DNA from: Candidatus Terraquivivens yellowstonensis
Lineage (GTDB): Archaea; Thermoproteota; Nitrososphaeria_A; Caldarchaeales; Wolframiiraptoraceae
Direction: 5' to 3'
DNA length: 64,000 bases
NCBI GenBank assembly: GCA_023539445.1
Contig: JAKCEW010000001.1
Span: forward strand, 75,484 to 139,483
Part shown: piece by piece, positions 5,780-59,205 of the stretch
Numbering within the stretch: position 1 is the stretch's first letter
How the letters are laid out: every line of letters begins with the position of its first letter
Position numbers and translations under genes: made by a program
Notes under the pieces: generated by a model
Databases searched by the model: none
The model's input: only the letters and a program-made list of their open reading frames with translations
What the model was told of the DNA's origin: nothing

Positions 5780-6970
5780 TTAATGTGCCCTCGAGACTGA
5801 CTCGACTATTCTGCGTATCTCCTCATTTAACGCAGCTGGTAAGCCAAACATGCTTACGTCCATGAAACCTCTGACGAGGAGAGCCTCCGCCTCTTCCTCA
5901 GACAATCCCCTAGCCATTAGGTATTCTATCTGTTCCTTCGCGATTTTTCCGATAGCCGCCTCATGGGTCAGCTCGACGCCCCTTATCTCTGCGTCCAACC
6001 TTGGGATGGCATGTATCGAAGCCTTATTTGAAAGCAATAAGCCCCTGCACTCGATATGTCCTTTACTATCTTCGCTTCTTCCAACGATCAATCCCCTTAA
6101 GTAAGCTTGAGCACTATCCGTAGCTATCACTCTAGATACTATCTCTCCCCGCGAGCCTTTGCCGTCGAGCACAATCTTCGCACCCACATCAACATAACTC
6201 CCATCTTTAACGTAGAGAATGGAGTTAAACCTGGCCCTAGCACCCTCTCCTACACAATGTGCCGCTGGAAACATCTGCAGGCTTCTGACGGGGCTTAGGC
6301 AGATATAGTTGCTGACAAATGTAGCCCCCTCTTCGACTAAAATAGCAGTTCTAGGTCTGGTGTCAAACTCAGGGGCCCAATTGTGTATCATAGTAAACGT
6401 TAACCTTGCACCCCGTTTAACATAGATCTCTGTGACGCCAATATGAAGGCCACGACTGACGCTTGGGTGAATGGTACAGCCGGTGATTATCTGCGCATCG
6501 GAGCCCGGCTCTGCGACTATGACGTTGTGGACATTTTGGTTGAATCTGTCTGTCGCGACAAACAAACATGCTTGGAGCGGGAGTGTTAGCTTTTGCCCCT
6601 CAAGAATTCTAACAAAGTATCCATCGTCCCAATCTCTGCCGGCAAGTTCTGTAAACTCATCCGCACTCTTGTCGATGAGCTGCCAAAAGTAGTCCTTAAG
6701 CCACTCGTGCCTTTGAAGTGCCTGCCTCATACTCCCCACCTCGACCTTTCCTTCAAAACCTTTCTTGATTCCATGAAATACGGGCACATCGTCCATTTGG
6801 AAGTATGTCCCGGATCTATCGCCCTCATCAGGTCTTATGCCGACCTGAAGGGAGCGCTTGGCAACATCGTCAGGAAGCTTCGTGAGGGGGCAGGGCGTCC
6901 ATTTTTTAACACCCCTGATAAATTCCTTTAAGTTCAGCGTTGGTACATTTTCTCCTTGTGAGGTATTCAA
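5780..6970 (-). CDS. sufD: Fe-S cluster assembly protein, SufB/SufD family
   Basis: 396 aa, with a SufBD-type beta-helix core and C-terminus. Its start overlaps the sufC stop. Confidence 0.8.
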   Translation of the reverse strand: MNTSQGENVPTLNLKEFIRGVKKWTPCPLTKLPDDVAKRSLQVGIRPDEGDRSGTYFQMDDVPVFHGIKKGFEGKVEVGSMRQALQRHEWLKDYFWQLIDKSADEFTELAGRDWDDGYFVRILEGQKLTLPLQACLFVATDRFNQNVHNVIVAEPGSDAQIITGCTIHPSVSRGLHIGVTEIYVKRGARLTFTMIHNWAPEFDTRPRTAILVEEGATFVSNYICLSPVRSLQMFPAAHCVGEGARARFNSILYVKDGSYVDVGAKIVLDGKGSRGEIVSRVIATDSAQAYLRGLIVGRSEDSKGHIECRGLLLSNKASIHAIPRLDAEIRGVELTHEAAIGKIAKEQIEYLMARGLSEEEAEALLVRGFMDVSMFGLPAALNEEIRRIVESVSRAH

Positions 6971-7695
6971 TGAAACTCCCCCTTACCTATTAAGAGACAC
7001 TTTTCACACCAACCATAACCTTCATGGAGTATCTGTGTAAGAATTTTTAGCGGGTTACCTGAACATGCTATCGTTCCGTTTATCATAACATGGCCTTTTG
7101 TCGCGTTAAGGTAGCGAAGAATGTGACCTGTGTGAGTTATAATTATACCTGTACCCCCGGTTAAGTACTCACTCAGGGCTTTCCCGATCCTCTCGAGGTT
7201 TTCGACATCAACGCCCGAATCCGGCTCATCGATTAGTGCAAAATCCGGTCTTTGGACAAGTAACTGGAGAATCTCCGAACGCTTCACCTCACCTCCTGAA
7301 AAGTCGACGTTTAGATCTCGTTCGAGAAATTCATGATTTAAGTTCAGCAACTTAGTGAATTTTCCTAAGTCATCTTTCGCTTGGCCGAGAACGTTGTTCA
7401 AGAGATCCTTTAGCTTGACGCCCCTGAGCGCTGGCGGATTTTGAAATACGACTCCTATACCAAGCTTTATCCTTTCATTTATAGGCATATCTGTGATATC
7501 CCTGTCCTTGAAGTATATCTTGCCCTTAACGACCTTATAGTTAGAGAAGCCAAGAATGGTCTTGATTAATGTAGACTTCCCCGAACCATTAGGGCCGAAG
7601 AGAACATGCACCTCTCCTTTGGGGACTTCTAGAGTGAGGTTTCTTATAACAGTCTTATCGGCAACCTCGACTGTTAGATTCTCGATCCGCAACAT
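6967..7695 (-). CDS. sufC: Fe-S cluster assembly ATPase SufC
   Basis: ABC ATPase with Walker A GPNGSGKST, ABC signature LSGGE and Walker B; 242 aa. Confidence 0.9.
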   Translation of the reverse strand: MLRIENLTVEVADKTVIRNLTLEVPKGEVHVLFGPNGSGKSTLIKTILGFSNYKVVKGKIYFKDRDITDMPINERIKLGIGVVFQNPPALRGVKLKDLLNNVLGQAKDDLGKFTKLLNLNHEFLERDLNVDFSGGEVKRSEILQLLVQRPDFALIDEPDSGVDVENLERIGKALSEYLTGGTGIIITHTGHILRYLNATKGHVMINGTIACSGNPLKILTQILHEGYGWCEKCLLIGKGEFH

Positions 7696-7836
7696 ATAGT
7701 TAACACCTGACTCGACGCAGACTTCGCTATTGAGTAATATGACACACCTAATATACCCTTTTATCCTAACCCTTAATTGGCGGCTTAACCATACAGATAA
7801 TTCCGCAGTTTGTATGGGGCAAAAAGAGCCGATATA

Positions 7837-8331
7837 TTAAGACATCCTTACCACTAATTCGTTTATTTCTTGACCTCTATACCCATATTCTCCCTTATCT
7901 TTGAATGGTCTCTTAATGCTGTGTTTAAAGCCCTTTCTTGGTGGATGCAGTCTGAAGAAAGGCTTCAGCCCCTTTTCTTTCAGTTGCGATAGCGTAACCT
8001 CTCCGGAGAATATCTTCTCGGCTAGCTCATCGAGTGAGTTAAAGCCTAGGGTTTTAACTTGTTCTTCATCGAGCTTTTTCCCGCCGCTCAACTCTCCCTT
8101 TTTCATTAAGAGCCTTTTTATGGTCTTCAGTGTAGGCTCACCCCAAGTCACGTAATGCTGAACCTTCCTCAACATGCCAAGATAACTTGGCGTGTTCTTA
8201 ACGATCGTGGCATAGTTAGCCCTTGGTAGATTCAATAGCTTTAGCGTTGCACGTTCTTCCTCACTCGCACCGACTGAACCTTTTATTCTAACCACTAAAA
8301 ACGTACTCGTACTCACCTCCAAAGCATACAC
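7837..8331 (-). CDS. rpl30: 50S ribosomal protein uL30
   Basis: 164 aa archaeal L30. It is the last gene of the spc-like block, and no L15 or secY follows. Confidence 0.85.
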   Translation of the reverse strand: MYALEVSTSTFLVVRIKGSVGASEEERATLKLLNLPRANYATIVKNTPSYLGMLRKVQHYVTWGEPTLKTIKRLLMKKGELSGGKKLDEEQVKTLGFNSLDELAEKIFSGEVTLSQLKEKGLKPFFRLHPPRKGFKHSIKRPFKDKGEYGYRGQEINELVVRMS

Positions 8332-18574: not shown

Positions 18575-19522
18575 ATGAAGGTATCAGGACATCTTGTAGG
18601 TCCGCAACCGCGCTCGGAAGAACTCATGAAAGTTTACAGAGAGTATGCAAAAGGTAAGCTCGCTAAGCAAGCTTTAGATGAAGTGATAAGAAAAGAGACT
18701 GAAGAGAACGTCAAGATCCAAATGGAAAATGATTTTACTGTAATCATAGATGGTATGTTGAATTGGCACGATCTTTTAAGACCGTTTGCGGAAAGGCTAA
18801 GCGGAGTAGAGGTTGGCGGTCTTGCTAGATGGTTTGATAACAACGTATTCTACAAACAACCTGTGATCGTAGGAAAGGTCGAAAGGACGAGGCCGTTACT
18901 TGAAAATATGATTTTTTATGACCTAGTGCCGCCAAGAAAGCTTAAGGTAATCGTTCCTGACCCATACACATTTTCAAAGCTTTCAGTTAATAAAAGTTAT
19001 AGAAGATTTGAAGACCTAGTTTACGATGTTGCTGAAGCTATGGCAGAAGAGATTCGCGTACTTCCTGCCGTACATGTTCAGTTAACAGCGCCCAGCTTAG
19101 TCTATGAAAAACTTCCTAAGGATGAGATAGAGTTGGCGATGAATGCTGTTGAGATTGTAAGAAGAAAATACGTAGGCACACTGTCTATCCATACTTGTTT
19201 TGGAAGTGTTGTTAACGCTATGCCCGAGCTTTTAGATTTTCCGGTTGACATCATTGGTGTAGATATGACAGTTACGTCATTCAAGGACTTGAAGGATTAC
19301 GACTTCACAAAAATTTTGGGAATAGGTTGCGTTGACGCTCGAAACACGGTAATTGAGACGCCGGACGAGATTGTCTCAACAGTCATGAGGGTCTTCTCAG
19401 AAACTTCGGTCAAACAAGTGTACGTAAGCCCGAGCGCTGGATTAGAGTTTTTACCAAACAACGTAGCAAACATAAAAATAAGGAACATAGGTTTTGCTCT
19501 AAAGCTCCTGAGGGAGGTGTGA
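18575..19522 (+). CDS. metE: Cobalamin-independent methionine synthase, N-terminal (non-catalytic) domain homolog
   Basis: MetE N-domain-like, with GGLARWFDNNVFYKQP resembling the MetE N-domain block MTKWFDTNYHY. It ends at a TGA at 19520-19522 and shares a reading frame with the next gene. Confidence 0.7.
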   Translation: MKVSGHLVGPQPRSEELMKVYREYAKGKLAKQALDEVIRKETEENVKIQMENDFTVIIDGMLNWHDLLRPFAERLSGVEVGGLARWFDNNVFYKQPVIVGKVERTRPLLENMIFYDLVPPRKLKVIVPDPYTFSKLSVNKSYRRFEDLVYDVAEAMAEEIRVLPAVHVQLTAPSLVYEKLPKDEIELAMNAVEIVRRKYVGTLSIHTCFGSVVNAMPELLDFPVDIIGVDMTVTSFKDLKDYDFTKILGIGCVDARNTVIETPDEIVSTVMRVFSETSVKQVYVSPSAGLEFLPNNVANIKIRNIGFALKLLREV

Positions 19523-19717
19523 CCTATAACTATCCATAGGTTATTCCCAACACAAGAAGTCGGGAGCCTCTCTAAAGCACCTTTCCTACGAAGGAGATTA
19601 TCTGAAGAGCATATAAGAATCTCAAGAGATTGGGCTATTCGCATAGGTGTAGAAAACTTTGAAGAGTTAATCGCACAACTTAAGCCCGGCATACAAAGCG
19701 ATGAGAAGTTAAAAAGC

Positions 19718-20662
19718 TTGGAAGATTGGGCATCGCTATACGGTATAAGGTTTCATGAATCGGCAGGGCTTGACATCGTCTACGATGGCGAGCAAAGAAG
19801 GGTCGAGATGTATGAATATCCCTTGATGCATGTAAGGGGATTCAGGTTCGTAGGTTATGTCAAAGTCTGGGATTTCGAAATTTTCAAAAAGGCCGCGGTT
19901 TTCGATAGACCATCGTTAATAAAACCTTACCATATAGAAGAATTCGAGTTTGCCAAAAAGAAGGCAAGGCGCGAGCTCAAGATTCCAATAACAGGACCAT
20001 ACACATTAGCGGACTGGTCTTTCGATGAGTATTATGTAAAAAGAAAGCTAGATGTCGATGATCCAATAGAAAGGAGAAGGATGAGTAAGCGCGACATGGT
20101 GCTCGACCTTGTAAAAGAGGTCATAAGGCCAAACTTGGAAGCACTCATAAGGGTCGGGGCCAAAAGGATTCAGATAGACGAACCTGCTGCCACGACGAAA
20201 CCAAATGAGGTTGACATATTCGTGGAAGGATTTAACGAAGCCGTGAAAGGACTTGACTGCATTTTTTCTGTTCATATATGTTACAGCGACTACAGACTCC
20301 TCTTTCCATACATACTGGACCTAAAGGCTGAGCATATATCGATCGAATGCGCTAATAGAGATACGAAGATGCTTGGCAGGGATGAAAGTTCCAGACCGGG
20401 ATACTCCGTGCTAAAATTGTTCAGGGAGTATGGAACAAAGATGAAGGTGGCGCCCGGCGTTATAGATGTGCATACGGACTTCATAGAATCGCCGGAACTC
20501 GTGAGGGATAGGCTACTGTATGCGGCCAAGTTATTAGATGACCCATCCAAGATAATAGCATCAAATGACTGCGGCCTCAGGACAAGGACGTGGGAGGTTG
20601 CTTACGAAAAAGAGAAAGCTTTAGTGGCAGGTGCAGAATTGGCTAGGAAAGAGTTTGAGTAG
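19718..20662 (+). CDS. metE: Cobalamin-independent methionine synthase, C-terminal catalytic domain. The track start is a TTG at 19718, but the frame is open back to 19523.
   Basis: Zn-ligand motifs VHICYSDY and SNDCGL, plus DGEQRR. The sequence between 19523 and 19718 (LFPTQEVGSLSKAP...) is already homologous to the start of the MetE C-domain. Confidence 0.75.
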   Translation: MEDWASLYGIRFHESAGLDIVYDGEQRRVEMYEYPLMHVRGFRFVGYVKVWDFEIFKKAAVFDRPSLIKPYHIEEFEFAKKKARRELKIPITGPYTLADWSFDEYYVKRKLDVDDPIERRRMSKRDMVLDLVKEVIRPNLEALIRVGAKRIQIDEPAATTKPNEVDIFVEGFNEAVKGLDCIFSVHICYSDYRLLFPYILDLKAEHISIECANRDTKMLGRDESSRPGYSVLKLFREYGTKMKVAPGVIDVHTDFIESPELVRDRLLYAAKLLDDPSKIIASNDCGLRTRTWEVAYEKEKALVAGAELARKEFE

Positions 20663-42816: not shown

Positions 42817-43245
42817 ATGGGTAATGGGCTATTTGCAGCGAGGAAACTCATCCAAAACAGGAAGAAGTTTAGGTGGAGTCAGCGAAAGTACCGAATCAGA
42901 ATGCTCCAGCTTAAGCTGAAGACTGACCCGCTCGAGGGTGCACCCATGGCCCGTGGTATAGTTCTGCAGAAGATTGGGATAGAATCTAGGCAGCCGAACT
43001 CAGCCGTTAGAAAGGCTGTCAGGGTTCAATTGATTAAGAATGGTAAGGTCGTTACGGCCTTCTTACCAGGTGACGGTGCCCTAAACGTCGTTGATGAGCA
43101 CGATGAGGTGATAATCAGCGGTATAGGTGGCTCCATGGGCAAAAGCTATGGCGACCTCCCGGGCGTTAGATACAAGGTAGAGTTGGTGAACGGCGTTCCG
43201 CTTAACCTGTTAGTTACCGGCAAGGTCAAAAAGCCTAAGAGGTGA
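42817..43245 (+). CDS. rps12: 30S ribosomal protein uS12
   Basis: [28 protein letters not shown] is S12. Confidence 0.9.
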
Positions 43246-43811
43246 CGTTTTTGGTAAGTTTCAAGATATTCGATAAATGGAGTACGGATGGTATCGAGAT
43301 AAAGGACCCCGGTCTACAGCGCTATATTTGCCTTAAACCGATGGTACACTCTGGTGGAAGACACGAACATAGGAGGTTTGGAAAAGCTAACGTCAGCATA
43401 ATCGAACGTCTTGCAAACATGCTTATGAGGCCTGGGAGGAACGGTGGAAAGAAATCTAAAGCCCTTAAAATCGTGCGTAATGCTCTTGAAATAATACATT
43501 TGAGAACCGGAGCAAATCCTGTAGAGGTTTTGGTGAGGGCGCTCGAGAATGCCGCACCAAGAGAAGACGTAACGAGACTCAGCTACGGAGGGATAGTGTA
43601 CTTCAAGGCGGTTGATATATCCCCCCAGAGAAGGTTGGACTTAGCGCTCAGGTATATAACAACGGCCGCCCGCGAAGCCAGTTTCAGGAGCAGGAAAACC
43701 GTGGACGAGTGTTTAGCCGACGAAATAATACTAGCCTCACAGAACGATAGCAAGAGTTATGCCATAAAGAAGAAGCTTGAATTAGAGAGAATAGCCTTGG
43801 CGTCAAGGTAA
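43242..43811 (+). CDS. rps7: 30S ribosomal protein uS7
   Basis: 189 aa S7 in the str-cluster position. Confidence 0.9.
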
Positions 43812-59095: not shown

Positions 59096-59205
59096 TGGCG
59101 GGCCCGGTGGGATTCGAACCCACGACCTATGGGTTACTCCGTTTAAACAAACCTAAGAGCCCACCGCTTTAGGCGGAACCCCCTACCTGGCTGAGCTACG
59201 GGCCC
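59096..59205 (-). tRNA. tRNA-Lys (anticodon CTT) with two introns, CCA encoded
   Basis: The 110-nt pre-tRNA has acceptor GGGCCCG/CGGGCCC and T-arm GTGGG-TTCGAAT-CCCAC. A canonical 19-nt intron follows position 37 (fwd 59135-59153) in a perfect BHB. A second 14-nt intron sits in the D-arm at 22/23 (fwd 59169-59182); removing it gives the canonical D-arm GCTC-AGCCAGGTA-GAGC. Confidence 0.8.

Follow-up and report, generated by a model that had tools for sequence, protein, structure and literature searches.

The 64,000-nucleotide (nt) stretch of Candidatus Terraquivivens yellowstonensis DNA analysed here (contig JAKCEW010000001.1, positions 75,484 to 139,483; hereafter the window) raises the question of how a methionine synthase (MetE) reading frame can be expressed when a single in-frame TGA stands between its two halves. 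An earlier note, made from the sequence alone, had offered three explanations, namely (i) an unusual start codon or termination-reinitiation for the catalytic half, (ii) readthrough of the TGA to give a fused protein, or (iii) a fresh nonsense mutation or a sequencing error, and had proposed a comparison with orthologs. Its description of the locus was accurate. Indeed, an ATG at 18575 opens a 315-codon open reading frame (ORF) closing at the TGA at 19520-19522, the same frame remains open past this TGA until the TAG at 20660-20662, and no ATG, GTG or TTG occurs between the TGA and the TTG at 19718, 65 codons downstream. The locus is the ordinary two-gene split MetE of thermophilic archaea and not a broken two-domain gene; its catalytic gene has lost its ATG and would initiate at the near-cognate codon ATA (19526-19528), probably in coupling to the termination just upstream.

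Two adjacent genes separated by a genuine stop

The split-MetE operon consists of an N-domain gene and a catalytic gene that are adjacent and co-directional (Table 1), and its host, a Terraquivivens-like archaeon from hot springs, is one of the Wolframiiraptoraceae (Caldarchaeales, formerly Aigarchaeota; Nitrososphaerota). A database search with the translation that follows the TGA returned 3,762 relatives, of which the best 120, from Nitrososphaerota, Aigarchaeota, Caldarchaeales and Bathyarchaeia, were inspected. All of these 120 catalytic homologs are stand-alone proteins and a fused two-domain protein was not found among them; the full-length calls have about 370-388 amino acids (aa) and cover 98-99% of the query, and the shorter entries are truncated calls or come from contig ends. 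Gene order is conserved in relatives, with a PhoU-like gene, a metallo-beta-lactamase-fold gene, Pyr_redox_2, the MetE N-half, the MetE catalytic half, S13 (on the opposite strand), TatA and elongation factor 2 (EF-2). The two halves are separate ORFs in 85 out of 85 distinct related junctions, so that the idea of an interrupted or recoded two-domain MetE was not borne out. The N-subunit frame is likewise unbroken (about 316-324 codons) in every close relative whose contig spans the whole gene; in locus L008 it reaches only 160 codons, at a contig end.

The stop codon itself varies at the orthologous site. It is TGA in the window and in L012, TAG in L001, L002, L013, L014 and L019, in L003-L006, in L007 and in L008, and TAA in L015 and L020. 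In the window, TGA closes 20 of the 63 long ORFs and is thus a normal stop, and neither a selenocysteine nor a pyrrolysine context was found at the TGA in question. As the stop can be TGA, TAG or TAA and the halves are separate genes in relatives, an error, a fresh nonsense mutation, selenocysteine insertion and a code in which TGA is a sense codon are ruled out as origins of the stop. Recoding of the TGA, as selenocysteine or as a sense codon, was accordingly rejected, the orthologous codon being TAG or TAA in close relatives and TGA being an ordinary stop here. The frame common to both halves, which would arise by chance in one case out of three, is incidental and carries no meaning, since relatives have a 2-nt spacer (L021) or ATGA overlaps (L009-L011 and many distant relatives); these ATGA overlaps, and CTGA overlaps elsewhere, put the two genes in different frames.

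The N-subunit ORF matches the Pfam families Meth_synt_2 (1.8e-21) and Meth_synt_1 (1e-13), as well as NCBIfam methionine synthase families, all of the latter under cut-off. The catalytic ORF matches Pfam Meth_synt_2 (4.7e-29) and, in both cases below cut-off, NCBIfam PRK04326 (1e-76) and PRK01207 (8e-70). The motifs in which MetE has its zinc ligands contain HxC, E and C in the encoded protein. In an alignment of 38 sequences of the catalytic protein, H250, C252, C349, S14, E89, D218, E11, G13 and W36 are invariant; E274 lies within SIECANRD. Motif equivalence to H641, C643, E665, C726, S433, E484 and D599 of the Escherichia coli enzyme suggests that zinc ligands and homocysteine binders are retained (PMC7857596). 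In particular, S14 may be the counterpart of Ser433, which binds homocysteine in E. coli MetE (PMC7857596).

The sequence that follows the TGA reads cct ATA act atc cat agg tta ttc cca (P I T I H R L F P). As the earlier note had perceived, the peptide PITIHRLFPTQEVGSLSKAPFL encoded there is the conserved N-terminus of the catalytic protein. Full-length orthologs whose sequences were read start with M(K/T)E(R/K)LFPTQEVGSL, the invariant E11, G13 and S14 fall within this segment, and close catalytic orthologs of 372-377 aa align from the first codon of the catalytic gene.

An ATA codon at the position of the orthologous ATG

At the position where orthologs carry ATG, ATA is found in five diverged lineages from independent assemblies. 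These are (i) the window and L012, an independent 558-kb metagenome contig with 3 synonymous single-nucleotide differences from the window in the catalytic gene, with the junction GGGAGGTG TGA cct ATA, (ii) the L001-type lineage, with the junction AGGAGGTG TAG tct ATA, present in 77 °C sediment of Great Boiling Spring (L001), in further JGI metagenome contigs and in a GTDB species representative (L019), (iii) L008, with TAG cct ATA (SRR7039830), (iv) L007, with TAG cct ATA (JGI 3300005800), and (v) L015/L020 (Ca. T. tengchongensis), with TAA cct ATA. An ATG stands at the same position in L003-L005 (TAG ctt ATG; the L003 sequence reads GGAGGTG TAG ctt ATG acc gag agg tta ttt), in L006 (TAG cct ATG) and, out of frame, in L021 of the same clade (TAG at ATG), and L009-L011 have an ATGA overlap. 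The proposed comparison with orthologs thus gives a TAG or TAA at the orthologous stop, separate genes for the halves and, in several relatives, an ATG start after a Shine-Dalgarno (SD) sequence. Every member of the clade has the SD, in the form (A/G)GGAGGTG. The spacer is CCT, TCT, CTT or, in L021, the 2-nt AT. L003 and L006 encode the identical protein P0001 and have ctt and cct, respectively, as spacers; since the spacer differs between these very close strains, it is free to vary.

In the window, the ATA is separated by 3 nt from the preceding stop and by 6 nt from the GAGGTG of an SD located at the 3' end of the upstream ORF. Five of the six other GAGGTG motifs that precede a long ORF in the window have a TTG or an ATG exactly 6 nt downstream, which matches the spacing of the ATA.

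Coding constraint begins at the ATA. The catalytic genes of the ATA lineages are intact (377-378 codons), and their pairwise ratios of nonsynonymous to synonymous substitution rates (dN/dS, Nei-Gojobori) are 0.03-0.05, with dS ranging from 0.5 to more than 2, that is, saturation. Over the 63 codons that lead from the ATA to the TTG at 19718, the window and L001, its nearest lineage, differ by 19 synonymous and no nonsynonymous changes, and across the clade this region has dN/dS values of 0.03-0.12. ATA is the only near-cognate codon conserved in the segment from the stop to LFPTQ. Judged by its homologous position, its proper SD and this constraint from the ATA onward, the gene would belong among genes with near-cognate starts.

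Initiation at another non-canonical codon near the junction, such as the ATC at 19532, or at the TTG at 19718, which would yield a 314-aa truncated enzyme, is improbable. The ATC lies 12 nt from the SD and is likewise a start in translation table 11, but it is confined to the window and L001 lineages, the others having GAA or AAA. The Leu codon is TTA, CTA, CTG or CTT. As for the TTG, it is the start of the mechanically defined ORF, and gene callers picked downstream starts in relatives as well (P0002, P0003, P0004), but the downstream codons that they chose differ between lineages, and the 63 codons upstream of the TTG are those under strong purifying selection and include the invariant E11, G13, S14 and W36.

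Reassignment of ATA to methionine was considered and rejected. Internal ATA is the dominant Ile codon and is aligned with I, V or L in orthologs, as in the standard code.

That the locus reflects faulty sequencing or assembly, or was recently inactivated (by a nonsense mutation in a fused gene, or by loss of a start in what would now be a pseudogene), is so improbable as to be negligible. It is true that a single G-to-A change turns ATG into ATA and that one window taken alone cannot exclude an error, but the identical TGA-cct-ATA junction occurs in the independent L012 contig, ATA recurs in four more diverged lineages from other samples, the stop is conserved throughout the family, and the dN/dS values and gene lengths given above are those of intact genes. 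The third explanation of the earlier note is refuted by the independent assemblies and the conserved stop.

According to a further explanation, the second of the earlier note, the stop would be read through to give a fused 694-aa two-domain MetE; the in-frame layout would then be functional and the ATA an internal Ile codon. This is very unlikely. In its favour, all five ATA lineages hold a stop, one codon and the ATA in the frame of the upstream gene, and bacterial MetE proves, through the matches to PDB structures, that a covalent N-C fusion works. On the other hand, (i) the stop varies between TGA, TAG and TAA among the ATA lineages and includes the tight TAA in Ca. T. tengchongensis, (ii) the spacer codon varies (P, S), (iii) the in-frame layout is inherited, as it is also present in the ATG-bearing L003, and the ATG-bearing L021 of the same clade is out of frame, (iv) lineages with CTG in place of ATG, described below, have -4 overlaps and are out of frame, yet have no canonical start, and (v) the stand-alone state of the best 120 homologs (orthologs of about 375 aa) and the normal use of TGA speak for two proteins.

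Initiation at the ATA 19526 corresponds to the first option of the earlier note, an unusual start or termination-reinitiation, which is favoured because the codon occupies the position of the orthologous ATG next to the SD and the stop and is kept in five lineages under strong purifying selection. Ribosomes that have just translated the upstream gene to its end, or 30S subunits retained at the SD, would restart at the ATA, where the initiator tRNA would pair with AUA (with a third-position mismatch) and insert methionine. The product would have 378 aa and begin with Met-Thr-Ile-His-Arg-Leu-Phe-Pro..., i.e. (M)TIHRLFPTQEVGSLSK. The catalytic gene would be translated from a bicistronic mRNA, either by termination-reinitiation or by SD-recruited subunits, because the gap between stop and start is just 3 nt, too short to contain a promoter. 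The ATA may either lower the output of the catalytic subunit or be tolerated, with coupling and the strong SD as compensation. We infer the use of the ATA, methionine as the first residue and the coupling of translation from these sequence comparisons.

The features of the locus, together with the near-cognate codons at the orthologous start position in other lineages, are collected in Table 1.

Table 1. Positions of the elements of the split-MetE locus in the window and of near-cognate codons at orthologous junctions in other archaea
Feature	Position	Strand	Remarks
MetE N-terminal-domain subunit gene	18575-19522	+	315 aa; ATG start, TGA stop
Catalytic subunit gene	19526-20662	+	378 codons + TAG (20660-20662)
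Putative promoter of the bicistronic unit, A/T-rich TATA-like box TTATTTAAAA	18529-18538	+	About 41 nt 5' of the N-subunit ATG; predicted from the sequence
Shine-Dalgarno sequence GGGAGGTG	19512-19519	+	Final 8 nt of the upstream ORF, last codons R-E-V; near-perfect
N-subunit stop TGA	19520-19522	+	Genuine stop; TAG/TAA at the orthologous site
Intergenic spacer CCT	19523-19525		3 nt
Proposed near-cognate start ATA	19526-19528	+	Aligned with the ATG of L003-L006 and L021 and with ortholog N-termini
First 64 catalytic codons	19526-19717	+	No canonical start; include the invariant E11, G13, S14 and W36
First canonical in-frame start TTG	19718-19720	+	Start of the mechanical ORF, 314-aa truncated product; rejected as true start
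CTGA	L099:1486-1500 and L100 (same sequence)		Geocrenenecus-like metagenome-assembled genome (MAG) and independent ENA assembly
CTGA	L102, about 36 nt upstream of 1501		Logan contig
CTGA	L070, about 15 nt upstream of 2504		Thermoplasmata MAG
ACG GAT AAG for the ATG GAT AAG of relatives	L089 (Bathyarchaeia CAZUFK010000021.1), about 12 nt upstream of 2504		Upstream TAA overlaps codons 2-3

Published work gives some support to initiation of this kind. In Haloferax and E. coli, a stop-start distance within -8 to +10 nt is a predictor of termination-reinitiation, with a several-fold enrichment of such distances among subunits of heteromeric complexes (PMC10666635; PMC6728339); the junction of the window, with its distance of +3 nt and its SD inside the upstream ORF, has the sequence features expected of such pairs (PMC10666635, PMC6728339). 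The classic coupled pairs galT/galK and rplK/rplA of E. coli are also separated by +3 nt (reviewed in PMC12548453), and ribosome profiling of H. volcanii placed about 30% of the novel initiation sites at near-cognate codons (PMC7261190). Literature searches turned up no direct precedent for a coupled prokaryotic pair that restarts at a near-cognate codon.

Several points weigh against initiation at the ATA by coupling. Initiation at ATA is about as weak as that at ATT, and MetE is usually an abundant enzyme. For ATT, initiation in E. coli is reported at about 0.3% of that at ATG (Hecht 2017, as cited in PMC10666635). The in-frame order of stop, one codon and ATA in all five ATA lineages leaves room for low-level readthrough. 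Coupling is computationally inseparable from independent SD-driven initiation, and one Sulfolobus pair with adjacent stop and start is reported to be uncoupled in vitro, according to its citation in PMC6728339. A conserved RNA structure that would enforce coupling was not found at the junction (RNAalifold consensus -9.8 kcal/mol; single-sequence z -0.79).

Conversion of AUA to AUI by A-to-I editing was set aside, as archaea are not known to have TadA-type mRNA or wobble editing.

Some further observations concern the junction and its surroundings. The window and L001 lineages have one additional codon within 19523-19540 (ATC CAT replacing GAA, AAA or GAG), which makes an inverted repeat, CCTAT-N8-ATAGG, in which the ATA falls in a short A/U-rich stem. 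This repeat is missing from the remaining ATA lineages, and its folding is insignificant (z = -0.79). At 19474-19483, the sequence AAAAATAAGG (codons K-I-R of the 3' end of the N-subunit gene) has near-invariant nucleotides in 7 lineages despite saturated synonymous sites. About 45-50 nt separate it from the downstream ATA, and it could act as a TATA-like promoter inside the operon, for a separate leadered catalytic mRNA, or it could reflect codon bias, with AAA, ATA and AGG among the preferred codons. A scan for sigma-70 promoters and intrinsic terminators is uninformative for an archaeon. Rfam indicated no riboswitch or other known RNA near the junction, and three tRNAs elsewhere in the window. 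A 107-nt Rfam tRNA match at 59099-59205 (-), with 47.7 bits, was not called by ARAGORN and is probably an intron-containing archaeal tRNA.

Regarding the other genes of the window, the catalytic MetE gene is the only real gene without a canonical start, and it is this lack, unlike the common frame of the two halves, that goes beyond chance. A scan of every long open frame and every SD-like motif of the window gave no second ATA start. A look-alike, the gene of an ABC ATPase at 6967-7836 (-), is in frame with the gene for ribosomal protein L30 past a single stop (7837-7839) and has 47 open codons before its first ATG. It was rejected as ordinary, having a normal ATG at 7695, an ABC domain right after it and an intergenic region of 141 nt. 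In several operon-internal genes, GAGGTG is followed after 6 nt by TTG, namely at 43239-43253 (+), 13625-13611 (-), 59040-59026 (-) and 8334-8320 (-), and the mechanical ORF list begins these genes at the GTG inside the SD, three codons early (43242, 13622, 59037, 8331). It appears that genes of this genome often start, in truth, at TTG.

Start codons at the junction in other lineages

The history of the start codon was followed on a neighbour-joining tree of the concatenated N and C proteins (500 bootstraps). In this tree, L003 (ATG) clusters with L007 (ATA) with 86% support, and L021 (ATG) clusters with L008, L015, L001 and the window (all ATA) with 94% support; the ATA lineages are monophyletic in none of the 500 replicates. 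As the ATA lineages are not monophyletic, ATG and ATA have been exchanged at least twice in this genus-level clade.

Near-cognate codons are also found at this junction outside the clade. In three other archaeal lineages (Table 1), CTG stands at the orthologous start and is fused to the stop as CTGA, instead of the usual ATGA. These pairs are out of frame (-4 overlap), and therefore readthrough cannot explain expression of the second gene; only near-cognate initiation can. Gene callers have shortened the CTGA genes as well (P0047, 366 aa; P0057, 349 aa). An ACG replaces the ATG in one Bathyarchaeia locus, L089, which has an alternative in-frame TTG 12 codons upstream; only one lineage is concerned, so an error is possible. 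P0049 (L101) was rejected as a further non-canonical case because it has an ordinary TTG start that the caller missed.

Altogether, 9 of the 85 distinct junctions have no canonical start, a proportion that is biased in that some of the junctions were chosen because their protein calls looked truncated. When GTDB species representatives were scanned without such a bias, 80 loci were returned, 4 of which have no canonical start. It may tentatively be proposed, with somewhat less than even confidence, that the split-MetE junction is a hot spot of repeated loss of the canonical start (to ATA at least two times within Terraquivivens, to CTG in three other lineages and to ACG in one) while the gene stays under strong purifying selection, and that SD-helped reinitiating archaeal ribosomes accept near-cognate codons efficiently enough for a housekeeping enzyme.

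Relation to known systems and significance

According to Price, Deutschbauer and Arkin (2021, PLoS Genet, PMC7857596), thermophilic archaea usually have split MetE as their methionine synthase, and often no other; the suggestion that a two-domain layout is in itself notable for an archaeon was therefore mistaken. The locus resembles the known archaeal systems in its two adjacent co-directional genes, the first with Meth_synt_1-type homology and the second encoding a Meth_synt_2 catalytic barrel with His-x-Cys, Glu and Cys, in its thermophilic host, and in the synteny and the separate genes of the 85 related junctions. It differs from them by the presence of ATA, and not ATG, GTG or TTG, at the orthologous start of the catalytic gene; start codons are not discussed in PMC7857596. 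In Pyrococcus furiosus, the two halves, PF1268 and PF1269, form a complex, as cited in PMC7857596, and by analogy the two products encoded here are presumed to form a heteromeric complex. Among split MetE enzymes, complex formation together with use of a methyl-pterin donor is known only for this Pyrococcus pair (cited in PMC7857596).

Compared with the fused two-domain MetE of bacteria and eukaryotes (TIGR01371; PDB 1T7L, 1U1J and others), the locus encodes an equivalent pair of homologous barrels, with no change in their N-to-C order, but the fused enzyme is one polypeptide of about 750 aa, whereas a conserved stop lies between the halves here. Membership in the fused family (TIGR01371/PRK05222) was rejected, the TIGR01371 scores being 92.5 and 78.8 bits against a cut-off of 930. 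The core methionine synthases MesA-MesD, which are stand-alone barrels, were likewise discarded as a match, given the N-domain homolog immediately upstream and the conserved synteny.

With termination-reinitiation pairs (Huber et al. 2019, PMC6728339; PMC10666635; PMC12548453), the junction shares the distance of +3 nt, the SD in the 3' end of the upstream ORF and the presumed heteromeric subunits. The studied cases restart at ATG, GTG or TTG, whereas here the codon is a near-cognate ATA (CTG or ACG elsewhere) and the coupling is putative. Initiation at AUA, AUC and AUU in E. coli (Romero and Garcia 1991, as cited in PMC6080066) and a survey of all 64 codons as starts (Hecht 2017, as cited in PMC10666635) have been reported. 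As in conserved non-canonical bacterial starts, such as the ATT of infC, and in the near-cognate sites of H. volcanii (PMC7261190), a near-cognate codon at the orthologous start is conserved across species behind a good SD. Unlike the bacterial examples, the host is an archaeon, the product is a subunit of a metabolic enzyme, no autoregulatory logic is known, and a single genus has seen two or more exchanges between ATG and ATA. The proposed ATA start would be a new instance of a known phenomenon, that of the alternative starts of table 11. It is notable because it occurs in archaea, has been conserved while synonymous sites became saturated, has arisen recurrently and is mis-annotated in a systematic way.

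Because ATA stands where relatives have ATG, gene callers truncate the catalytic gene. The automatic calls in the ATA and CTG lineages (P0002-P0004, P0047, P0057) are all short by 8 to 47 residues; P0002 and P0003 have 358 aa and start with LR(R/K)(R/K)L, and P0004 has 331 aa and starts with MIAQL. Such truncated models lose the invariant EVGS motif, wholly or mostly, and as a consequence pathway tools could score methionine synthesis in the Wolframiiraptoraceae as defective.

In summary, the idea of an interrupted or recoded two-domain MetE can be dropped in favour of an ordinary operon with a real oddity of translation initiation. To our knowledge, conserved near-cognate starts have hardly been documented in archaea, and the junction, at +3 or -4 nt, offers a natural and evolutionarily replicated case in which relaxed start selection by reinitiating archaeal ribosomes can be tested. 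If the tentative proposal of a hot spot is true, the stringency of start selection would be relaxed in termination-reinitiation, and gene callers would mis-annotate such genes systematically.

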